Below the pieces are notes generated by a model. That model saw only the letters and a list, made by a program, of their open reading frames with translations, was not told the origin of the DNA and ran no database searches. A stretch of DNA of 56,223 bases from a bacterium (GTDB lineage: Bacteria > Patescibacteriota > Minisyncoccia > UBA6257 > 2-01-FULL-56-20). The stretch spans positions 1 to 56,223 of the forward strand of contig JAKAUM010000003.1 in NCBI GenBank assembly GCA_021827685.1, read 5' to 3'. Both the position numbers and the translations under genes were made by a program. Below, in pieces: positions 7,957 through 19,522 of this stretch. The stretch's first letter is position 1; every line of letters begins with the position of its first letter.

Positions 7957-8574
7957 ATGCATCGTCTTTCGTCGTTTATTTCGTTGGTTGTATTTCTGGC
8001 TTGTGCTACCGGGGCGAGGACGCAGGTGTTGGTTACTGGGCAAACCGCAGGGAAGGGCAATGGCGTGGCATTCGTCTCGAGTAATGGTGTTTTCGCCGAT
8101 GGCATCGACGCCGCCAACAACTGGGGCGGTGTCGAAGTCGGAATCGCGGGTCACATAGATCTGTTCGGGGGAGGCGGTGCTTTCTCACTCCCCGGACATC
8201 AATTCCCGTATGCCGTCGCAGGTGGGCTGTTCGGTCTGCCAACCCGAAAGCTTCATTTCGACGCGTCTACCTATCAAGTCGCGATTCTGCCATTGTATGA
8301 CCGAAAGGACGCATCAACGTCTATCATCAATTCGGCGCTTGTCGTGAGTAAAACGTTCACCCTGAAACGATTTACTATCACGCCCTACACGGGCGCATCG
8401 TGGCTGTACTCATTGGGGCCGAAAGATAGAATGTTTTCGATCCCGCACTGCACCTTTCAAATTCCTTTCGGTATTTCAATTCCAATCAGTGAAAAGCTTG
8501 GACTTGTTATCGAGTACGATGAAGGCTCAACGAAGTCGTTTGGTATCGCCTTGAGCTACTCGTTCCGAATTTAG
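7957..8574 (+). CDS. Secreted beta-strand-rich hypothetical protein
   Basis: SD AAGGAGG; signal peptide; alternating hydrophobic strands; ends FGIALSYSFRI. Confidence 0.75.
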   Translation: MHRLSSFISLVVFLACATGARTQVLVTGQTAGKGNGVAFVSSNGVFADGIDAANNWGGVEVGIAGHIDLFGGGGAFSLPGHQFPYAVAGGLFGLPTRKLHFDASTYQVAILPLYDRKDASTSIINSALVVSKTFTLKRFTITPYTGASWLYSLGPKDRMFSIPHCTFQIPFGISIPISEKLGLVIEYDEGSTKSFGIALSYSFRI

Positions 8575-8616
8575 AAAGAGAGGCCTCCATGGACATCCGG
8601 AGGCCTCTTTCATTTT
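8575..8616 (+). terminator. Intrinsic terminator
   Basis: AGAGGCCTCC...GGAGGCCTCT stem followed by TTTCATTTT. Confidence 0.8.
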
Positions 8617-8664
8617 CGCCCACTATTTCGCCCTAAACGCCCTGATAGTATCGGACTCCCATCC

Positions 8665-8732
8665 CCGCCTCGCCCGCCGCCATTATTCCCGGTCATAGAG
8701 GACGGTCATGATAGCGTTCTGAAAATGACCCA
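8665..8732 (+). repeat. Degenerate direct repeat, copy 2
   Basis: Matches 6913-6981 with 10 substitutions and 1 gap. Confidence 0.85.
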
Positions 8733-8850
8733 ACCAAAAGATAGCCGAGCGCTCATTCCCGTGCGAGATGGGTCATCTCGTGATAGATTGACGCCATGAT
8801 TTCTCTTTTGAGCCTCCTGGAATTCATTACGAAGGGAATCCCGCATGACT

Positions 8851-9249
8851 TTATGCGACGCGAGGGGCGCTCCCACGGAGTAACCCCTTTATCTCTTCAC
8901 GAAGCTCGATTCGATCTAATTCCTTAAGCGACACCCATTCCAATTCGTAAGTATTGTCGGGCGATTGCCGTTTCTTTTCCGGTCCGCCGAGCTCTGGTTT
9001 GCCGCTGAACGAATGTGCGCGGTAGAAATGCTGCATTTCACCGTCCAGCTCAAGCGTACCGAGCCTCTCGCCAAGGATTATATCCAGTCCGGTCTCCTCT
9101 TTTACCTCGCGGACAGCAGTATCCTGTTCGGTTTCTCCGGGTTCTATGCCGCCGCCGGGCACGACATAATATTCTTTGCAGTTCTTGCGGCGGCGGATGA
9201 GAAGCACTGTCCCCTTGTCCGCTATGAAAACTGCTACGCGCTGCCTCAT
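8851..9249 (-). CDS. NUDIX hydrolase
   Basis: Nudix box GGGIEPGETEQDTAVREVKEETGL. Confidence 0.95.
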   Translation of the reverse strand: MRQRVAVFIADKGTVLLIRRRKNCKEYYVVPGGGIEPGETEQDTAVREVKEETGLDIILGERLGTLELDGEMQHFYRAHSFSGKPELGGPEKKRQSPDNTYELEWVSLKELDRIELREEIKGLLRGSAPRVA

Positions 9250-9824
9250 GCGCGAATAAACGGATTGTCCATGTCAAAAACAATCATCGGCAGGGAATTC
9301 ACCTCGTTAGGGTGGATTCCATATCTCATCTTATATAGCTTGCCGACGGCTCCGAATACGGCCTTGCCATAATCGAAGCCGATTTTCTCGGCCGCTCTTT
9401 TTACCGCCTGTTCGGAGGGCCCTTCCACTTCAACGAACGGCTCGAGGAACGGCCATTCGTCAATGGTTATCTCGACATCGTCCAGTATCCAAAGCTCCCG
9501 CTTTGTTTCCTGGTAGGATTTCCGCTCGCAGCCGATTGCCTCAAGCAGTTTCACAGCATCATCAAAGTCGCTCACCTCGAGCCGGATCTCTTTTTGGTCC
9601 TCTATCTTATCGCCATCGTTCATTTTTAGGCTCATAGTGACCTTATCGCCCTCGTCGCGCACGCGGAGCCATTTATATTTAGAGCGCCCGCCACCCGGCA
9701 AATCAAAAGGGATGCGACGTTGGAGATGCTCCGGCCGTACGAGCATCGCTCCCGCCCTGGCGAAGCGCCGCCGCACCTCACCTTTTTCGATATTGAGAAA
9801 TTTTGCTTCGTATTCAATGTCCAT
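9246..9824 (-). CDS. CYTH domain protein (class IV adenylate cyclase-like)
   Basis: N-terminal EYEAK (ExExK), WLRVR, KRELW, FVEVEG. Confidence 0.9.
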   Translation of the reverse strand: MDIEYEAKFLNIEKGEVRRRFARAGAMLVRPEHLQRRIPFDLPGGGRSKYKWLRVRDEGDKVTMSLKMNDGDKIEDQKEIRLEVSDFDDAVKLLEAIGCERKSYQETKRELWILDDVEITIDEWPFLEPFVEVEGPSEQAVKRAAEKIGFDYGKAVFGAVGKLYKMRYGIHPNEVNSLPMIVFDMDNPFIRA

Positions 9825-9829
9825 CGAGT

Positions 9830-10189
9830 CTACAAGCGATTTTTTATCCAAAGATCCAAGCCGTCATCTGGGTAGCGGGGGACAATGTGAAAATGGAAAT
9901 GAGGAACCGATTGCTGGGCGTCCTTGCCGCTCGCATGGAGGAGGTTTATGCCGGTCGCATGTTTTTCTGCGGCCAGCTCTCTTGAGAGCGACTTTGCGTC
10001 TACGGCCAGCTGCTCAAGGTCAGATTTGCCGATGTCGAAAATATTCTCAAAGTGCTCCTTCGGGATAAGGAGAGCGTGACCCTTGGCGACGGGTTCGAGC
10101 GGAACGATGCCGAGGCTGGATGCGGATTCGAATATTATCGTTGCGGGTGCTTCACGGCAAACAATTTTGCAAAATGCGCAATCAACCAT
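9830..10189 (-). CDS. HIT family nucleotide hydrolase
   Basis: CAFCKI N-terminus, GHALLIPK, histidine triad HFHFH. Confidence 0.95.
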   Translation of the reverse strand: MVDCAFCKIVCREAPATIIFESASSLGIVPLEPVAKGHALLIPKEHFENIFDIGKSDLEQLAVDAKSLSRELAAEKHATGINLLHASGKDAQQSVPHFHFHIVPRYPDDGLDLWIKNRL

Positions 10190-10634: not shown

Positions 10635-12188
10635 ATGAAAACGAAATACATGGGCGCGATCGTCATGCTGGCGGGAATATTCGCCGGTGGCATCGTGTTC
10701 GCTCAAACTGCCGCGCCCGCCAACGCGGGCGGGCCGAACATCCAGTATCCTGTCGCCGCGCTTGGAAATTGCGGAAGCAAGGATGCGTGCAGGACATACT
10801 GCAACGACCCTTCTCACGTTAACGCATGCCTGACCTTCGCGGAAGAAAATAATTTGATGTCGCCGGACGAGGTGGCTGCGGCGAGAAAATTCATTGCGGC
10901 CGGATCCGTAGGCCCCGGCGGCTGCACGTCGCCCGAGGCCTGCAAGGCATACTGCAATGACATAAGCCACATTAACGAATGCGTTTCCTTTGCCGAGAAG
11001 ACGGGCATTCTGCCGCCGGACCAGCTTGCGGAAGCAAAAAAGGTGCAAGCGGCGATTGCGAGGGGAATCCAGCCGCCGCCCTGCGGCGGGGAAGACGCCT
11101 GCAAGATATATTGTTCGGAACCGAGCCATATGGAGGCCTGCATTACGTTCGCGGAGGCCGCCGGCATGATGACGCCCCAGGACTCGCAAAATGCCGATAA
11201 GATGCTGGCCGCGATTAAAAAAGGAGTATACCCGCCGCCGTGCAATGGTCCGGACGCTTGCAATGCGTACTGTGCCGAAGCGGACCACGTCAATCAATGC
11301 ACCGCCTTTGCCGTCGCGGCGGGAATGATGACGCCGCAAGAAGCCGAGATGGCCCAGAAGACCGGCGGCAAGGGTCCCGGCGGTTGTATCGGGAGGGAAC
11401 AGTGCAACGCTTTCTGCAACAATCCCGATAATCAGCAAGCTTGCTTCAATTTCGCCAAGGACAACGGCTTGATTCCGGCCGCTGACCTACAGCAGATGGA
11501 ACAAGCGCAAAAGATGAACGAGCAGGCGATCGAGAATGCGCCGAAAGCCGTCATAAATTGTCTAAGTGCCGCCCTCGGGAGCAGCGTGCTTCAGCAAATT
11601 AAGGACGGTCAGATAATGCCGTCGCAAAGCATCGGCGCCGCGATGAGGCAATGTTTCTCGGAAAACCATCCGCAAGGGGGGCCGACGCCCCCTTCGGGTA
11701 CTATGCCCGGTCAGCGGTTTACTTCAGGCACTATTCCGAATATGCCGCCGGGGGGCGGAGAATTTCCGCAGAGCCGCGGGTATGGGCCTGCGAGCGGAAC
11801 GTTCCAGAATATGCCGCCGTATCCGCAGGGGCAGATTCCTGCCGGAGGGCCGCAGTGCGAGCCTGGCGCTCCTTGCAATCAAGGTTCAATGCCGCCGTGC
11901 CCGTCAGGCCAAAACTGCGGCAACTTTCAAGGAAACGGCTTTACTACGGGAACCGGCCCTATGCCGTTCCCGCCGAACGGCATGCTGAGTCCATCGGGAA
12001 GCCAGCAGCAGCCGCCGCAGGGTTCTTATCCTTACAACGGCCAAATGCCGCCAATCCAGAGCGGCACGCCATCGTTCCCGCCGCCGGCAACTTCTTCCCC
12101 GTCTTCCTTCCGGGGCGGCCCCGAGCAGGCGAATATCCTGAGCGTTTTCGGTTCTTTTATAAAAAACTTAATATCGTCCGGTCACTGA
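10635..12188 (+). CDS. Secreted Cys-rich repeat protein with Pro/Gly/Gln-rich tail
   Basis: Signal peptide; five repeats of C-x5-C-x3-C-x4-(H/N)-x3-C-xxFA. Confidence 0.85.
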   Translation: MKTKYMGAIVMLAGIFAGGIVFAQTAAPANAGGPNIQYPVAALGNCGSKDACRTYCNDPSHVNACLTFAEENNLMSPDEVAAARKFIAAGSVGPGGCTSPEACKAYCNDISHINECVSFAEKTGILPPDQLAEAKKVQAAIARGIQPPPCGGEDACKIYCSEPSHMEACITFAEAAGMMTPQDSQNADKMLAAIKKGVYPPPCNGPDACNAYCAEADHVNQCTAFAVAAGMMTPQEAEMAQKTGGKGPGGCIGREQCNAFCNNPDNQQACFNFAKDNGLIPAADLQQMEQAQKMNEQAIENAPKAVINCLSAALGSSVLQQIKDGQIMPSQSIGAAMRQCFSENHPQGGPTPPSGTMPGQRFTSGTIPNMPPGGGEFPQSRGYGPASGTFQNMPPYPQGQIPAGGPQCEPGAPCNQGSMPPCPSGQNCGNFQGNGFTTGTGPMPFPPNGMLSPSGSQQQPPQGSYPYNGQMPPIQSGTPSFPPPATSSPSSFRGGPEQANILSVFGSFIKNLISSGH

Positions 12189-12233: not shown

Positions 12234-12860
12234 TTACCTGAGCGGCTGGGTATGTATGCCGCACTCGCCGCATGCGTTGGGCGTTCCTTTCCAGCGCCCC
12301 GCGCGCTCCGTTTCGTCCTCGCTCTCTTCCGGGAATGAGCAGAGCTTACAGCCGAGGCTCCTGTAGCCTCTCTGATATATCGGATTGATCGGGATCTCGT
12401 TAAGCGCCAGATACCGCCAGATATCGAGCTCGGTGAATTCAAGGATCGGATTGACTTTTACCAGCCCGTTTTTTTCTTCGACCGGCTCGAAGTCGGCGCG
12501 CGTGATCCCCTCCGTTTTCCGTACGCCGGAAATCCATGCGCCGTAGTTCTTGAGAGCCTCTTTCGTTTTCTCGACCTTCGGCCGCCCGCAGCACTTTTCT
12601 CCTTCTTGCTGGGAGAAAATGTATTCGGTGTAGTTCAAGCCGTATCGCGCCGCCATATCCTTCGCGAACGCATATGTTTCGGGAAATTCGGTGTCCGCCA
12701 TGATGGAAAATACGGGGATATCCGGCTTTACGGACAATACGAGATGCAGGGTGACCATCGAATCCTTGCCGAAAGAACAGCCGAGACAGATATTCGGATA
12801 TTTGGCGGCCGATTCGCGGATCAAGCGTTTTGCGTCCTCTACTTTTTTCAGATAGTTCAT
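12234..12860 (-). CDS. cysH: APS/PAPS reductase family protein
   Basis: SFGKDS, DTEFPETY, CC...K, SGVRK, GYRSLGCKLC, ERAGRW, terminal ECGIH. Confidence 0.9.
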   Translation of the reverse strand: MNYLKKVEDAKRLIRESAAKYPNICLGCSFGKDSMVTLHLVLSVKPDIPVFSIMADTEFPETYAFAKDMAARYGLNYTEYIFSQQEGEKCCGRPKVEKTKEALKNYGAWISGVRKTEGITRADFEPVEEKNGLVKVNPILEFTELDIWRYLALNEIPINPIYQRGYRSLGCKLCSFPEESEDETERAGRWKGTPNACGECGIHTQPLR

Positions 12861-13003
12861 TTTTTTATTTAAAACTTGCATATAAGTATCAGCTGGCGCC
12901 GGTGCGTCGTCAAGGGGAATTTGGGGATATTTACGTGCGGACCGATGCCCTCTGCGGCGCGACCGGCATCGCGCGGGCATCTTCCCGGGAGCGCCAGCCG
13001 CGT

Positions 13004-14077: not shown

Positions 14078-14452
14078 ATGAAACGCGCGAAGGAGAAACC
14101 GCATCACGCGGAAGCGGAAGAAGACGGACCGCCCGCCACTCCTCCGGAGGTATGGGCATCGTCCATGGAGGATGCCGAAAGAGGAGGTCCCAAGCCGAAT
14201 CCGAAACCCTACCGCTTCGGCGACCGCGCAGATTTTAAAGATAAGTCAAGAAGCCTGAGCCTATGTCCGGTATGCGGTTGGGGGACTTTCTCGCGCGATA
14301 TGAAATGGGTCGATGGGCACGCGATAGGGCTTTTTATCTGCAAAAGGGAAAAGGACGGCAAGGGGAAGGGGCACCGATGGATTTTCGATTATAAGGCAGG
14401 CATAGTGGAGCGGCCCGACGAGGCGCAATACAGGATGATATTTCCAGAATGA
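14078..14452 (+). CDS. Hypothetical protein, possible Zn-ribbon
   Basis: CPVCG and later C-x9-H; stop overlaps the folA start (ATGA). Confidence 0.6.
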   Translation: MKRAKEKPHHAEAEEDGPPATPPEVWASSMEDAERGGPKPNPKPYRFGDRADFKDKSRSLSLCPVCGWGTFSRDMKWVDGHAIGLFICKREKDGKGKGHRWIFDYKAGIVERPDEAQYRMIFPE

Positions 14453-14964
14453 ACATCGCGATCATCGCGGCGATGGATGAGGGCCGCGCGATTGGCGCCG
14501 GCGGGAAAATCCCCTGGCATCTTCCGGCCGACCTGCGGCGTTTCAAAGAGCTTACCACGGGGCATCCCGTCATCATGGGGCGGAGGACTTTTGAGTCGAT
14601 TGGCGCGAAACCTCTTCCGGGCCGGACGAATATCGTAATCACGCGCGACCCGGCGTACGCGGCGCCGGAGGGATGCCGCGTCGCGAATTCGTTCCATGAC
14701 GCCCTTCGCGCGGCGGAAGGCGGCGCGATGGGGGAGGCCGGCGACATATTCGTCATAGGCGGCGAGGAGATTTACCGGCTCGCCCTTCCTTATGCAAAAA
14801 AAATCTATCTCACGCGGGTGCGCGGCGCCTTCGGCGGCGACGCGCATTTCCCGGAATTCGAAGACGGTCCCGGGGGCGGATGGCGGCTCGTGAGCTCCTC
14901 GCCGCATGAGAAGGACGAAAAGAATCAAGCGGACTACGAATTTCTCGAGTACGAGAAGAAATAG
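14449..14964 (+). CDS. folA: Dihydrofolate reductase
   Basis: IPWHLPADLRRFK, MGRRTFESI, PLPGRTNIV, VIGGEEIY. Confidence 0.97.
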   Translation: MNIAIIAAMDEGRAIGAGGKIPWHLPADLRRFKELTTGHPVIMGRRTFESIGAKPLPGRTNIVITRDPAYAAPEGCRVANSFHDALRAAEGGAMGEAGDIFVIGGEEIYRLALPYAKKIYLTRVRGAFGGDAHFPEFEDGPGGGWRLVSSSPHEKDEKNQADYEFLEYEKK

Positions 14965-14968
14965 CGCT

Positions 14969-15985
14969 TCAAGCCCCCTGCTGCCGCCCCTCCTCTTTTT
15001 TCTCGCGGACGAATTTTTTCCATGAATCGGTCACGATGCCGCCGACGACGGCGAGCTCCGCTTTGATCGGCGGGTGAGGATCGTAATTCTCCAATTTCAC
15101 GAGCTCCGGCGCGAAATCGTCTATGGTTTTCAAGGCGGGATCCAGCGTCACAGCGGGGAGCGGGCGCGGTGTGCGGGAGAGCTGTTCTTTCATTGCGCCG
15201 ATATGGTTCTCGTAAACGTGGACGTCGCCGAAGGTATGCACGAATTCGCCGGGTTCGTTGCCGGTCGCGCGGGCGAGGACCATCGTGAGGAGCGCGTAGC
15301 TTGCGATGTTGAAGGGCACGCCGAGGAAGATATCCGCCGAGCGCTGATAGAGCTGGAGCGAAAGACGGCCGTTTTTAACGTTCGCTTGGTACATATTGTG
15401 GCAAATGGGGAACCGCGCGGCCTCGTCGGGCAGAGCCATCTCATAGAGGTACTCCGGGTTCCATGAAGTGACGAGCGCATTATGCGCGTCGGGATCTTTA
15501 ATCAGGTCGTTTACGATCCATCGAACCTGGTCGATCGCACGGCCGTCTTTCGCGGGCCAGCGGCGCCAGAATTCGCCGTAAATGTGCCGGAGCTCGCCGT
15601 GTTCTTTCGCGAATTCCGCGTCCGCCGCGATCTTCGCGACAAACTGCTCTTTCGTCATTTCCGGCGCTGCGCCCTTATCTATCTTCTCGCGGTAAATGCG
15701 GTAGGGGTAGTCGTCCCAGATATGGACGCCGCGATCCACGAGATATTTGATGTTGGATTGCCCGGAGAGGAACCACGCGAGTTCGCAGACGATTCCTTTC
15801 CAATAGACCTTCTTCGTCGTGAGGAGCGGGAATCCGCCCGTAAGGTCGAACCGGATTTGGCGGCCGAATAGGCTATACGTACGGTCTCCGGTCCCCTTGT
15901 CCTCCTGTTTTACCCCGTGCTCGAGGATCTCGCGGGCGAGGTCGAGATACTGGTATTCGGGATGCCTGCGGGCGGGTTCGGGCAC
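14969..15985 (-). CDS. thyA: Thymidylate synthase ThyA
   Basis: FPLLTTKK, catalytic PICH, QRSADIFLGVPFNIASY, GDVHVYENH. Confidence 0.97.
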   Translation of the reverse strand: MPEPARRHPEYQYLDLAREILEHGVKQEDKGTGDRTYSLFGRQIRFDLTGGFPLLTTKKVYWKGIVCELAWFLSGQSNIKYLVDRGVHIWDDYPYRIYREKIDKGAAPEMTKEQFVAKIAADAEFAKEHGELRHIYGEFWRRWPAKDGRAIDQVRWIVNDLIKDPDAHNALVTSWNPEYLYEMALPDEAARFPICHNMYQANVKNGRLSLQLYQRSADIFLGVPFNIASYALLTMVLARATGNEPGEFVHTFGDVHVYENHIGAMKEQLSRTPRPLPAVTLDPALKTIDDFAPELVKLENYDPHPPIKAELAVVGGIVTDSWKKFVREKKEEGRQQGA

Positions 15986-15989
15986 TGGT

Positions 15990-16652
15990 TTATTGCACGG
16001 TAAATGTTTTTTCCGTGCCGTAATAGTCGCGCCAGTGGGCGTTATAAAAATCGAACATGCGCGCGAGGCGGTTCTGCGGGAGCTCTTCGATGCCGAGTTC
16101 GGCCATAAGCGCGCGCAGTTCGGCTTTCGCCGCTTCCGCGCGAGATCCGTCGGATTCTATTTTCTCGAATTCGGCGAGGTAGCCGTAGCCGGCATTCCTG
16201 TCAATCGTAACATTGGTTCCCTTGAACCTGAATTCCTTGCGCTCGCGCGACCATTTTGCCTGGCAGGAAAAGCCCGCCTTTTCGATTTCCCCGTCCAATT
16301 TCTCTATCGGCATTTCCGATTCTGCTTCGAGTTCGCGCCGTGCCGTGCCGTTCGCGCTCGTCGTGTCGTCGATTGCCGCCTTGAGGACGAGAAGCACCCT
16401 GCCGTCCGCATCGCGCGTCCGGAGCGAGGCGTTTCCGGCTTTTCCGGCAAGGTCGAGGAACGCCGCGCGCGTCTCGGCGTCTTTTATAAGCGGCGCGAGC
16501 GCCGCGAGGTCGCCCTTGCCTTCGAAATAATGGTTCAGCTGGCGGTGCGCGCCGAGCGTTTCGAGCTGCGGATCGAGCTCGCGCATCCGCGCCTCAAGGC
16601 GCTCCGCGCTTTCGGGGCCGCCGAGCAGAGATTTGATTTCAATTTCATACAT
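15990..16652 (-). CDS. CYTH (triphosphate tunnel metalloenzyme) domain protein
   Basis: YEIEIK (ExExK), SLRTR, LVLK, RRELE, SRERKEF, LAEFE. Confidence 0.85.
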   Translation of the reverse strand: MYEIEIKSLLGGPESAERLEARMRELDPQLETLGAHRQLNHYFEGKGDLAALAPLIKDAETRAAFLDLAGKAGNASLRTRDADGRVLLVLKAAIDDTTSANGTARRELEAESEMPIEKLDGEIEKAGFSCQAKWSRERKEFRFKGTNVTIDRNAGYGYLAEFEKIESDGSRAEAAKAELRALMAELGIEELPQNRLARMFDFYNAHWRDYYGTEKTFTVQ

Positions 16653-17244
16653 GGTCTTTTCCCCGCGGCCCGCGCGCGATTTCCTCGGACAGTTTGGAGG
16701 CGAGAGGATTTTCCTGGCCGGCGTATTTATTATCCTTTTTCAGATGGTACGGAGTTTCCACCCTGCTTGAAACTTCTTCGAACGTGAAGGCGCAGACGCG
16801 CATGCCGGGATAGAGGAGCACGGGTACGACCCCCAGGTTGCCGAGCTCCATGACCGGCTTGCCGCGCCAGCCGGGATCAAAGACGGACGCGGTGCCGTGG
16901 ACGATGATGCCGAGACGGCCGAGGGAGCTTCTCCCTTCGATGCGGCCGACGAGGTCGTCCGCGATTTCGAGCCATTCGAGCGTCGTCGCGAGCACAAGGT
17001 CGCGCGGCTGGAGGACGAGGGGGTCGTCTTCCGTGATCGTAATGCATTCCATCATTTTCTCCGCGTTCTGCGGGTCGCGGAGGTCGATATGGGAAACCTT
17101 CGAATGGCGGAATATCTTTACTTCGCTTCCCATCCGGAGGTCGAGCGAGCAGGAGCCGAGCTGGGTTGCGAAGTCGGGCGCGGGATCGAGTTTTATGCGG
17201 CCCTCGGCGATGGCTTTCTTGATGTCCCGGTCAGAGAGAATCAT
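16645..17244 (-). CDS. dcd: dCTP deaminase
   Basis: MILSDRDI, SLDLR, GRSSLGRLG, DPGWRG..VMEL, KYAGQ. Start at ATG 17244. Confidence 0.95.
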   Translation of the reverse strand: MILSDRDIKKAIAEGRIKLDPAPDFATQLGSCSLDLRMGSEVKIFRHSKVSHIDLRDPQNAEKMMECITITEDDPLVLQPRDLVLATTLEWLEIADDLVGRIEGRSSLGRLGIIVHGTASVFDPGWRGKPVMELGNLGVVPVLLYPGMRVCAFTFEEVSSRVETPYHLKKDNKYAGQENPLASKLSEEIARGPRGKDHV

Positions 17245-17439
17245 AGTAGAAGAATTGTATCGTGGTCGGCGCGCATGGACAATCCGCGCTGTGGACAGGC
17301 GTGGGTATTGCCGGTGGACGGGGTGTGGATTCCGCAAGGATTTTCTGTCCCCTCCGCCAGCGGCCCGTCTTCCCCGCGCGCGGGTTGTCCGCGTCGCGCG
17401 GGGATTTTCGGGGCGTGGTATGATGTGTCGCATAAAGCG

Positions 17440-18702
17440 ATGATTCTGTCCAATCTCCAGGAAAACGACCGCGAGGTCTATGAAATCATAAAGCGCGAAG
17501 AAAAGCGCCAGGAGGAAGGCATCGAGCTCATCGCAAGCGAAAACTATGTCTCGCGCGCCGTCCTTGAAGCCATGGGGTCGGTCCTTACAAATAAATACAG
17601 CGAGGGGTATCCGGGCAAGCGGTATTACGGCGGGAACGGGGTTATTGACGACGCGGAAAATCTTGCGATCTCGCGCGCAAAAGAGCTTTTCGGCGCGGAG
17701 CACGTGAACGTACAGCCCCTTTCGGGATCGCCCGCCAACCTTGCAGTATACATGGCGCTCCTGAATCCCGGCGACAAGGTGCTCGGATTTTCCCTCGACC
17801 AAGGAGGCCACCTTTCCCACGGCCATCCTTTGAACTTTTCGGGAAAGCTCTATTCGATCATCCCGTATTTCACGAAGCGGGATACCGAGACGATCGATAT
17901 GGACGAGGTGGAGGCGATCGCGCTCCGCGAACGGCCGAAGATGATTCTTGCGGGATTCTCGGCGTATTCGCGTTCGCTCGACTGGAAGCGCTTCCGCGCG
18001 ATCGCCGACAAGGCGGGCGCGTTCCTCTTCGCCGACATCGCCCACATTGCGGGCCTTATCGCCGGGAAACAGCTCGAGAACCCATTGCCCTTTTGCGACG
18101 TCGTTTCAACGACGACCCATAAGACGCTCCGCGGTCCCCGCGGCGCCATTATTATGTGCAAGGAAAAATTCGCCGCGGCAATCGACCGCGCGGTGTTCCC
18201 CGGCGTGCAGGGCGGCCCGCACGATCATGCGAACGCGGCGAAGGCGGTGGCGTTCGGAGAGGCGTTGAAGCCGGAATTCGCGGAATATTCTAGGCGGACC
18301 ATCGCGAACGCGCGCGCGCTCGCGGCGGCGCTCGCGGCGAAGGGGTATCGGGTCGTCTCGGGAGGAACCGACAACCACCTTATGCTCGTCGATGTGTTCG
18401 GCAGCAAGGGGATCACGGGCAAGGAGGCGGAGGCGGCGCTTGAGCGCGCAGGGATTTCCGTAAATAAAAATATGATCCCGTTCGATTCCAGGAAGCCGCT
18501 TGATCCGTCGGGAATCCGGCTTGGGACGCCCGCGCTGACTACGCGCGGATGCGGAGAAACCGACATGGGCGCCGTCGCGGACATTATCGATGAAGCGCTC
18601 CAAAACCGCGCGGATGAAGCGCGTCTCGCCGCCACCGCGGAGAAGGTGAGGGAATTCGCCCTCCGGTTTCCGGTACCCGGAATCGATGAGCATGGTGATT
18701 GA
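17440..18702 (+). CDS. glyA: Serine hydroxymethyltransferase
   Basis: LIASENY, EGYPGKRYYGG, PLP lysine in TTTHKTLRGPRG, SGIRLGTPA. Confidence 0.98.
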   Translation: MILSNLQENDREVYEIIKREEKRQEEGIELIASENYVSRAVLEAMGSVLTNKYSEGYPGKRYYGGNGVIDDAENLAISRAKELFGAEHVNVQPLSGSPANLAVYMALLNPGDKVLGFSLDQGGHLSHGHPLNFSGKLYSIIPYFTKRDTETIDMDEVEAIALRERPKMILAGFSAYSRSLDWKRFRAIADKAGAFLFADIAHIAGLIAGKQLENPLPFCDVVSTTTHKTLRGPRGAIIMCKEKFAAAIDRAVFPGVQGGPHDHANAAKAVAFGEALKPEFAEYSRRTIANARALAAALAAKGYRVVSGGTDNHLMLVDVFGSKGITGKEAEAALERAGISVNKNMIPFDSRKPLDPSGIRLGTPALTTRGCGETDMGAVADIIDEALQNRADEARLAATAEKVREFALRFPVPGIDEHGD

Positions 18703-19522
18703 CGGGAAAACGATTGCGGAAGGGATAAAGGAACGCCTCCGCCGCCTGCCGAAGCCGGAGAGATTCCTCGGCGCCGCGCTCGTGGGCGGCGATCCTGCGT
18801 CGCTTAACTTCTTGAAACAGAAAGAGCGGGTGGCGCGGGAGCTCGGCATCGAATTCCGCCTTTACGAATTGCCGCCCGCAATCTCGACGGATGGATTGCG
18901 CGCGGAGATCGGACGGCTGGCGCGGCCGAAAAACTGCGGCGGGTTCATCGTCCAACTCCCCCTGCCTCCGGAAATAAACCGGCATTACGCGCTGAACGCC
19001 ATCCCTAAAGAGAAGGATGTGGATTTTCTAAGCGAGCCGGCGCTCGGCGCGTTCTATACCGGCCGCAGTCCGGCCGTCCCGCCGTCCGCCGCGGCCGTAG
19101 AGGAGATTCTAAAACTCGAAGAGCGCGACTTGCGGGATCTTACAGTGGTCATGGCGGGTGCGGGATTCCTCGTCGGGAGGCCCGTCGGGTTTTGGCTCCA
19201 AAATCGCGTGGGAGAGCTCGTGGTTCTTGACCGCAGCGTGAATGATTTTCATAAGCGGCTCGCGGGCGCGGACATCGTGGTGAGCGGAACGGGCCATCCG
19301 AAGCTTTTCGGCGCGGAACACCTGAAAGAGGGCGCCCTGGTTATCGATTTCGGTTTCAGCCGCGGGGCGGGCGGAGAGATTTCCGGCGACTTCGATCCTG
19401 CGGGCGCCGAGGCCAAGGGCATCCGCTACACGCCGACGCCGGGAGGCACCGGTCCGATACTCGTCGCAAAACTGTACGAAAATTTTTACGTCCTGAACGG
19501 CGCTATGCCCGCGGAGTCTTAA
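18686..19522 (+). CDS. folD: Bifunctional methylene-THF dehydrogenase/cyclohydrolase
   Basis: IDGK, VQLPLP, EKDVD, VGRP, TPTPGGTGP. Confidence 0.92.
   Translation: MSMVIDGKTIAEGIKERLRRLPKPERFLGAALVGGDPASLNFLKQKERVARELGIEFRLYELPPAISTDGLRAEIGRLARPKNCGGFIVQLPLPPEINRHYALNAIPKEKDVDFLSEPALGAFYTGRSPAVPPSAAAVEEILKLEERDLRDLTVVMAGAGFLVGRPVGFWLQNRVGELVVLDRSVNDFHKRLAGADIVVSGTGHPKLFGAEHLKEGALVIDFGFSRGAGGEISGDFDPAGAEAKGIRYTPTPGGTGPILVAKLYENFYVLNGAMPAES

Follow-up and report, generated by a model that had tools for sequence, protein, structure and literature searches.

The conversion of deoxyuridine triphosphate (dUTP) to the monophosphate (dUMP) is needed for two reasons: it supplies thymidylate synthase with substrate and prevents uracil from entering DNA. 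This step is catalysed by homotrimeric Dut proteins (PF00692) and also by bifunctional deaminases (Dcd:Dut) such as Rv0321 of M. tuberculosis (2qxx) and the M. jannaschii enzyme (1ogh), which go from deoxycytidine triphosphate (dCTP) to dUMP without a separate Dut. A quite different fold, the triphosphate tunnel of the CYTH proteins, is found in the class IV adenylate cyclase CyaB (Y. pestis 2fjt/3n0z; TIGR00318), which attacks the alpha phosphate and releases pyrophosphate (PPi), thus cutting the bond that a dUTPase must cut. A recognisable dUTPase is missing from many of the prokaryotes sequenced (Kerepesi et al. 2016, PMC5122711, in part), and the CYTH and MazG triphosphatases of jumbo phages have been proposed to degrade nucleotides in a role comparable to that of a dUTPase (PMC7824862, in part). 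The window analysed here, a stretch of 56,223 nucleotides (nt) from a patescibacterial genome (contig JAKAUM010000003.1), contains a CYTH gene placed between dcd, coding for dCTP deaminase, and thyA, coding for thymidylate synthase. The thyA-linked subfamily to which its product belongs was labelled CYTH-T. Its functional link to thymidylate synthesis is real and apparently undescribed: full-text literature searches, supplements excluded, found nothing that links the tunnel or CYTH fold to thyA, dcd or dUTP.

The genes dcd, CYTH-T and thyA form a tight operon on the minus strand (Table 1). An earlier reading of the same DNA, referred to below as the first-pass annotation, had described this operon, with dcd overlapping the CYTH-T gene by 8 nt and only 4 nt between the CYTH-T stop and the thyA start, as part of a complete module for thymidylate (dTMP) synthesis, in which folA abuts thyA convergently and glyA-folD diverge from dcd. 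The coordinates agree on every count. The folA and thyA stops are separated by 4 nt, dcd and glyA diverge over 195 nt, glyA and folD overlap by 17 nt, and each gene name is backed by Pfam or NCBIfam, so that the module is real. The absence of dut from the window, also reported then, extends to the whole assembly (567 kb in 13 contigs, 90% complete), in which a PF00692 search matched only Dcd itself, no dimeric dUTPase was matched and no MazG protein exceeded the cut-off. The triphosphates of the pathway are dCTP, dUTP and thymidine triphosphate (dTTP), and the step from dUTP to dUMP has no assigned enzyme, which favours a Dut-like role for CYTH-T. Our preference, held tentatively and with something short of even confidence, is that CYTH-T is a tunnel phosphohydrolase of thymidylate synthesis that turns dUTP into dUMP, standing in for Dut. 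Dcd would deaminate dCTP to dUTP (in phages, the dU nucleotide would come from ribonucleotide reductase in place of Dcd), CYTH-T would remove phosphates from dUTP to leave dUMP, and ThyA would methylate the dUMP, with FolA, GlyA and FolD recycling the folate. The proposal supposes that dUTP is indeed the substrate of CYTH-T, that it would be cut either at the alpha-beta bond with release of PPi or by stepwise removal of phosphates, and that the linked Dcds would not complete dUMP formation themselves.

The functional link rests on gene neighbourhoods in other genomes. A scan of one genome per species identified 471 stretches encoding a CYTH-T relative, the best 80 of which were examined. In 77 of these 80 loci, thyA lies downstream of the CYTH-T gene and on the same strand. 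Three gene orders were observed, namely dcd>CYTH>thyA (28 loci), CYTH>dcd>thyA (22) and CYTH>thyA (27, with dcd elsewhere in the locus in 22 and not in the locus in five); where the two genes are direct neighbours, a median of 49 nt separates CYTH-T from the thyA match. The remaining three loci comprise one without thyA within 6 kb (L066), one in which thyA is 30% identical and on the opposite strand (L073), and a contig that ends 450 nt past the CYTH gene (L071). The neighbours that recur across the 80 loci are folA (74), dcd (73), tmk (33), glyA (32), a P-loop gene resembling deoxynucleoside monophosphate (dNMP) kinases (23), an HD_3/YfbR-like 5'-deoxynucleotidase (23) and folD (11), followed by genes for HAD (8), NUDIX (7-8) and F420-ligase-like (7) proteins. 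The linked Dcds are of three divergent types, with identities of 30-84%. At one locus (L007:5416-6660, plus strand), Dcd and CYTH-T are encoded by a single open frame of 414 codons (P0121, 414 aa [amino acids]), with neither a stop nor a start codon in the DNA at the joint. This fusion, which would place both steps on one chain as in the bifunctional Dcd:Dut enzymes, is the sole one among the 80 loci, has one member in the protein collection and rests on one contig, where a sequencing error is possible. Two further long proteins, P0122 and P0123 (403 and 404 aa), were not counted as fusions: PF01928 is the only one among their precomputed domains, and their N-terminal halves resemble an upstream extension of the frame.

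The linkage reaches beyond cells. Three viral records of 111-190 kb encode CYTH-T proteins that are 31-35% identical to that of the window and have all the subfamily motifs; thyA lies downstream in all three, and folA within 5 kb in two (L148 and L149). No dcd was found within 5 kb of CYTH-T in these records, nor any PF00692 match over their whole length (CheckV completeness of 100, 99 and 76%). Other genes of these records code for DNA polymerase A, a class II ribonucleotide reductase and a Rha protein. A search of 50,697 GenBank phage records for relatives of the viral proteins found none. Compared with the phage enzymes that degrade deoxynucleoside triphosphates (dNTPs), which include T4 gp56-type dCTPase/dUTPases, MazG-like proteins and the jumbo-phage CYTH proteins, the three viral contigs are distinguished by a CYTH-T gene placed upstream of thyA; the excerpted text of the jumbo-phage proposal (PMC7824862) mentions no thyA linkage, subfamily or assay. 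The conservation of CYTH beside dcd and thyA that the first-pass annotation had put forward as a check was therefore found in the cellular loci, in the fusion and in the phage contigs, and comparative genomics could hardly provide a stronger case for the link with thymidylate synthesis.

One of the viral records (L150, plus strand) has a thyA gene in two open frames, 8443-9132 and 9397-9687, which lie about 260 nt apart and cover profile positions 2-175 and 180-264; the split may be due to an intron or to a break. The reductase gene of the same record contains an intein with a LAGLIDADG domain.

As judged from its residues, CYTH-T is a distinct and strongly conserved subfamily with an intact triphosphate-tunnel catalytic set. 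The only Pfam family matched is PF01928, over residues 1-190. Among the candidates scored, 3,363 relatives were found at E ≤ 0.001; the best 120 are 57-72% identical and about 224 aa long, and where a source is named it is Paceibacterota or Patescibacteria. At source these relatives carry the label 'CYTH domain-containing protein' or else 'adenylate cyclase class IV'. An alignment of 26 homologues (57-72% identity) contains 67 invariant columns. These include the EXEXK motif (E3-I-E5-I-K7), which is retained in the viral relatives, and residues R78, R80, K91, R105, E107, K133, R136, R138, D151, E161 and E163; the invariant basic and acidic residues probably face the tunnel. The conserved motifs of the subfamily are QLNHYF, DDTTSxNGTAR, KWSRxR, NAGYG and YYGT(E/D)K. 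Since the catalytic set is intact, CYTH-T most probably has an enzymatic activity on a triphosphate.

The AlphaFold model of CYTH-T (predicted local distance difference test, pLDDT, 88.7) is a predicted barrel of eight main strands, and its top Foldseek matches are all tunnel enzymes. The best is Saci_0718 (7nsd, E 1.3e-12), and others are PH1819, Pfu-838710, Y. pestis CyaB, thiamine triphosphatase and AtTTM3. The stand-alone tunnel enzymes Saci_0718 (7ns8/7nsd), PH1819 (2een) and Pfu-838710 (1yem) form the best group (E 1e-12 to 1e-10; template modelling score by target 0.72-0.82) and are the only PDB matches of CYTH-T at the sequence level. They share with it the EXEXK motif as well as the charged residues, basic and acidic, of the tunnel; the identity, however, is only 15-22%, and CYTH-T has in addition a helical insert at 45-71, an invariant, flexible and poorly modelled loop at 94-105 (IDDTTSANGTAR; pLDDT <50 at 98-102) and a conserved, helical C-terminal extension at 193-220. 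For the known stand-alone enzymes, literature searches found no linkage to thymidylate genes. CyaB has the same fold, and its model TIGR00318 is the best NCBIfam match, but CYTH-T reaches only 33.5 bits against a cut-off of 57.95, over residues 74-190 only, and its gene context holds no hint of cyclic nucleotide signalling. None of the known dUTPase families is matched (trimeric PF00692, dimeric PF08761, MazG PF03819), so that CYTH-T, if a dUTPase, would be a non-homologous one. The window encodes a second, generic CYTH protein (9246-9851) that shares 18% identity with CYTH-T and shows none of the subfamily motifs, which makes CYTH-T an extra, specialised copy. A search of the ESM Atlas with CYTH-T returned its own CYTH clusters only, and a prediction of the complex between a ThyA dimer and CYTH-T, run with two alignments, gave a score of 0.00, which counts neither for nor against a contact.

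The phyletic distribution was studied in 251 genomes drawn evenly from the phylum, the same set being searched with each query (E < 1e-60 for CYTH-T; at least 275 bits for canonical ThyA; for true Dut, a near-full-length PF00692 match of at least 54 bits, partial matches that are Dcds being excluded). CYTH-T was present in 14 genomes, including that of the window and an unpublished one (G154), and in none of the 12 sampled from the window's own class, so its distribution is patchy. Canonical ThyA was found in 78 of the 251 genomes and Dcd in 157, and both were present in all 14 genomes with CYTH-T. Dut, by comparison, was found in 110 genomes overall and in one of those 14; of the 11 CYTH-T genomes with a completeness of 90% or more, ten lack it. 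When the 78 genomes with canonical ThyA were sorted by the company that ThyA keeps, 34 had Dut only, 13 CYTH-T only, 11 only a 180-aa dUTPase-like family described below, one (G068) CYTH-T plus Dut, and 19 none of the three. Within these 78 genomes, Dut, CYTH-T and the 180-aa family are thus nearly mutually exclusive and look like three alternative partners of ThyA. With homotrimeric Dut, CYTH-T would share the proposed reaction and the genomic niche; the two have no relation in sequence or fold. Five CYTH-T genomes covering the three gene orders (G000, which is the window's genome, G042, G114, G251 and G252) were searched for other routes to dUMP. Their only PF00692 match was Dcd, and no dCMP/CMP deaminase, no dimeric dUTPase and no MazG protein above the cut-off was found in them.

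The ThyA proteins of these loci have a peculiarity of their own. That of the window is of the long, L. casei-like form and ends in a 25-aa extension, VGGIVTDSWKKFVREKKEEGRQQGA, encoded at 14969-15043; the Pfam match stops at residue 313 and all 60 listed PDB chains end aligned to residues 311-313, so that the protein lacks the canonical free C-terminus directly after ...IKAxxA(V/I). A C-terminal tail is present on 71 of 72 CYTH-linked ThyAs, following ...IKAxxA(V/N); it mostly starts with xGG(F/L/I/Y) and continues with up to 21 mostly basic residues (loci L003-L082). Residues C195, R215, D218, N226, H256 and Y258, which we take to be the catalytic Cys and other core residues of ThyA, are invariant in 38 linked ThyAs. 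The free C-terminus of ThyA closes the active site, and the tail therefore calls for an explanation. In 20 ThyA genomes without CYTH-T, nine proteins had the canonical end (Dut in six of the nine) and 11 were tailed (Dut in none). In nine of these 11 tailed-ThyA genomes, a dUTPase-superfamily protein of 179-186 aa is encoded beside thyA, mostly directly upstream (examples in Table 1). This 180-aa protein falls between the dCTP deaminase model, on which it scores 87.7 against a cut-off of 92.8, and the archaeal dUTPase model, on which it scores 73.8 against a cut-off of 130. The deaminase Glu is missing from it, and its C-terminus is rich in Gly. In one genome (G200) the gene order is dcd (Arg type), 180-aa protein, thyA, folA. 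The family occurs in 22 of the 251 sampled genomes and in none of the 14 with CYTH-T, and no member more than 50% identical was found in the 80 CYTH-T loci or in the window's genome. It was rejected as a clean equivalent of Dut, as it adjoins a true Dut in G047 and G118; for the same reason, its occupying the position of CYTH-T upstream of thyA is only a suggestive argument for in situ displacement.

The window's genome also contains a second gene of the ThyA family (G000:C2:26201-27172, equal to L084:3201-4172, plus strand; 323 aa, TIGR03284 206 bits), which is followed by a gene for a SpoU-type RNA methylase. In its product, PCC and FDF replace the PCH and FNI of ThyA, respectively. An Asn-to-Asp change switches enzymes of the ThyA type towards dCMP.

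The reading of CYTH-T as a substitute for Dut can be made more specific, in a form that we find conceivable but doubtful. CYTH-T would represent an additional dUTPase class, structurally unrelated to the others and based on the tunnel barrel, in which water would act instead of the 3'-OH used by the cyclase, converting dUTP into dUMP and PPi; it would have taken over this step in those Patescibacteria in which Dcd lost its hydrolytic half-reaction, and in phages that have ThyA, FolA and the reductase but no Dut or Dcd. CYTH-T is in any case a concrete, clonable candidate for the missing step from dUTP to dUMP in a large group of ultra-small bacteria and some phages. If the proposal is correct, the tunnel fold would gain a new class of substrate and possibly a new mode of cleavage, the label 'adenylate cyclase class IV' on CYTH-T genes would be corrected and metabolic reconstructions of Patescibacteria improved, and it would be explained how the lineages with CYTH-T, cells and viruses alike, live without any known dUTPase. 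Even with another substrate, the strict linkage to thyA marks CYTH-T as a new player in a textbook pathway.

Several observations weigh against a dUTPase role; they concern the chemistry, the distribution and the linked Dcd. The proposal is weakest in its chemistry. Most of the known tunnel enzymes cleave a terminal phosphate, acting on tripolyphosphate (PPPi), on nucleoside triphosphates to give diphosphates or on thiamine triphosphate, and to our knowledge the class IV cyclase is the only one that attacks the alpha phosphate. As to the distribution, in G068 the genes for CYTH-T, ThyA, a 144-aa Dut and Dcd lie side by side, adjoined by tmk, a dNMP-kinase-like gene and folA, and two of the 80 loci have a Dut-like gene no more than 6 kb from CYTH-T. 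Among the 43 genomes with ThyA and Dcd that lack CYTH-T, 18 have Dut and 25 do not, and life without Dut therefore does not require CYTH-T. The anti-correlation with dut for which the first-pass annotation had proposed to look is thus present in the CYTH-T genomes, but it is not specific to them; its Fisher p value of 0.02 ignores phylogeny, and the genomes are not independent, since eight of the 14 are from one family (f46). The loci examined, being the best 80, do not cover all CYTH-T relatives. Further, a PF01928 profile search of the window's own genome detected the generic CYTH alone and overlooked CYTH-T, scored at 44.7 bits by hmmscan, so results of 'not found' in this genome search are no proof of absence. 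Finally, the Dcd of the window has Val at the position of E. coli Arg126 (motif TASVFDPGW) and retains the catalytic Asp and the deaminase Glu, and the true Dut of G068 (L083:4993-5427, GVVDPYY) has Val at the same position; to go by these residues, the window Dcd may form dUMP itself.

The significance of this position comes from work on Dcd. In monofunctional Dcds, an Arg (Arg126 in E. coli) two residues before the catalytic Asp replaces the attacking water, while the Asp coordinates the catalytic water; the proven dUMP-forming Dcds have Phe or Trp in place of the Arg (PMC3360063, in part). The first-pass annotation had cautioned that the Dcd of the window resembles the bifunctional type, and this caveat stands, as the protein has Val rather than the blocking Arg and keeps the Asp. 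Its PDB matches are tied between the bifunctional M. tuberculosis enzyme (2qxx, 6e-37) and E. coli Dcd (1xs1, 2e-36). A survey of the window and the 80 loci yielded 74 linked Dcds, which were compared at the Arg126 position and at that of E. coli Asp128 (M. tuberculosis Asp119). Forty combine Ile or Val with Asp, 24 Ile or Leu with Asn, seven Lys with Asp, two Val with His and one Val with Glu; none has an aromatic residue, and none an Arg, at the Arg126 position. The linked Dcds thus differ from the bifunctional enzymes in having Val, Ile, Leu or Lys at this position, and a third of them lack the water-activating Asp (Asp in 47, Asn in 24, His in two, Glu in one). An Asn-type Dcd would hardly be able to activate water. 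By comparison, among 42 Dcds of sampled genomes that lack CYTH-T, the residue at the Arg126 position is Phe, Tyr or Trp in 29, His in eight and another in five, irrespective of the presence of Dut, so that the linked Dcds form a distinct set. Outside CYTH-T loci, Asn-type Dcds were found together with the 180-aa protein in G012, G040, G111 and G089, with Dut in G019 and with neither in G005.

These residues bear directly on the most serious of the alternatives, which we consider unlikely though with a substantial chance of being right: the linked Dcd would be bifunctional, producing dUMP, PPi and NH3 from dCTP, and CYTH-T would be an accessory phosphohydrolase, either drawing the reaction forward by hydrolysing PPi or PPPi or clearing away escaped dUTP or other dNTPs, and would not itself be the source of dUMP for the pathway. 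The window Dcd, free of the Arg126 block and with its Asp retained, would fit this by the rule in PMC3360063 (in part), as would the aromatic residue that most Dcds of Patescibacteria carry with or without Dut, the many Dut-less genomes that do without CYTH-T, and the presence of CYTH-T together with Dut in G068. Against it stand the replacement of the water-activating Asp by Asn in 24 of the 74 linked Dcds and the lack of an aromatic residue in all of them. The accessory role for CYTH-T would agree with the preference of known tunnel enzymes for PPPi or PPi, but the window already encodes a generic CYTH. Clearance of PPi or PPPi, which the first-pass annotation had offered as an alternative, is unlikely as an essential role: among the five CYTH-T genomes searched, a Family I pyrophosphatase was matched strongly in three and weakly in that of the window, and was not found in G252. 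Simple PPi clearance was accordingly rejected as the main role of CYTH-T; it also leaves unexplained the 67 invariant columns, the extra conserved loop, the C-terminal extension and the linkage to thyA in phages with no dcd nearby.

CYTH-T could also be a regulator or signalling enzyme, that is, a sensor of dTTP or dUTP or a cyclase of the class IV type, that tunes Dcd or ThyA. This we regard as improbable. The label 'adenylate cyclase class IV' on its relatives, the position of cyaB as top NCBIfam match and the presence of Y. pestis CyaB among the fold matches would agree with it, and a stoichiometric partner would fit the tight translational coupling of the operon. The TIGR00318 score, however, is well below the cut-off, an invariant and full catalytic set fits turnover better than sensing alone, and the neighbourhoods have no recurrent gene for a receptor or an effector.

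An action downstream of ThyA on thymidine nucleotides, such as a phosphotransfer replacing thymidylate kinase (Tmk), appears more improbable still. Tmk (PF02223) was not found in nine of the 14 CYTH-T genomes (that of the window and eight of f46) as against its presence in 179 of the 251 overall; the weak Tmk match in the window's genome is a tandem adenylate kinase; and one fold match, the polyphosphate polymerase VTC (8i6v), is a phosphotransferase with a tunnel domain. On the other hand, tmk is found at a distance of up to 6 kb from CYTH-T in 33 of the 80 loci, the two co-occur freely, with Tmk in five of the 14 sampled genomes, the absence of Tmk is concentrated in one family, and Tmk is also missing from G009, G012 and G040, which have no CYTH-T. 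A replacement of Tmk was therefore rejected, tmk being a frequent neighbour. The window's genome and the eight sampled f46 genomes, in which thymidylate kinase was not found, all have ThyA. The two tandem adenylate kinase genes of the window's genome lie at G000:C2:16669-17864 (equal to L107:4670-5865, plus strand), after secY and before map.

A role on the folate side, such as stripping the triphosphate from dihydroneopterin triphosphate, is scarcely credible: the neighbouring folA, glyA and folD and the F420-ligase-like gene of seven loci would suit it, but the pteridine pathway is mostly missing, FolP and GTP cyclohydrolase I (FolE) each being found in only one of the five CYTH-T genomes searched (G042), and it was rejected on these grounds. 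That the adjacency reflects chance or an inherited gene order without functional link has a practically negligible probability, since, although many of the 80 loci are related and they are the most similar of the 471 relatives, the linkage persists over three gene orders, three types of Dcd, a fusion and phage contigs at 31-35% identity.

Table 1. Position and assignment of the genes and sites of the dTMP module in the window, with examples of the 180-aa family in other loci.
Feature	Coordinates	Strand	Assignment and evidence
folA	14449-14964	+	dihydrofolate reductase; Pfam DHFR_1 190 bits; convergent with thyA
thyA	14969-15985	-	thymidylate synthase, 338 aa, GTG start; Pfam Thymidylat_synt 322 bits; NCBIfam thym_sym (TIGR03284) 358.7
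CYTH-T gene	15990-16652	-	220-aa triphosphate-tunnel protein; Pfam CYTH PF01928 44.7 bits, cut-off 23.2
dcd	16645-17244	-	dCTP deaminase, 199 aa from MILSDRD start; Pfam DCD 153; NCBIfam dCTP_deam (TIGR02274) 189.7, cut-off 92.8
dcd/glyA divergent intergenic region	17245-17439		195 nt; one promoter-like site ahead of dcd
promoter-like site TTGTCC-17-TACAAT	17282..17254	-	ahead of dcd
glyA	17440-18702	+	serine hydroxymethyltransferase; Pfam SHMT 535 bits
folD	18686-19522	+	methylene-tetrahydrofolate dehydrogenase/cyclohydrolase; THF_DHG_CYH 78 bits, THF_DHG_CYH_C 98 bits
180-aa family, example	L101:4362-4901	-	
180-aa family, example	L094:2867-3427	+	
180-aa family, example	L087:4398-4940	+	

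The region between dcd and glyA contains a single promoter-like site, as against a mean of 1.4 in shuffled sequences; promoter-like sites are therefore not enriched there, and the site ahead of dcd is a consensus match only. The base composition along the window showed nothing unusual at the locus. The generic CYTH gene belongs to a group of three overlapping or abutting genes on the minus strand (8851-10189), in which it lies between a NUDIX gene (8851-9249) and a HIT gene (9830-10189); its product matches the CYTH profile with 49 bits. The trio may be a cluster for nucleotide house-cleaning. Closer to the dTMP module, a gene at 12234-12980 on the minus strand codes for a PAPS-reductase-domain protein (PF01507, 142.5 bits). 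A gene on the plus strand (10635-12188) has a translation of 517 aa with a signal-like N-terminus, at least five Cys-rich repeats (C..C..YC..P.H...C..FAE) and a tail rich in Pro, Gly and Gln.

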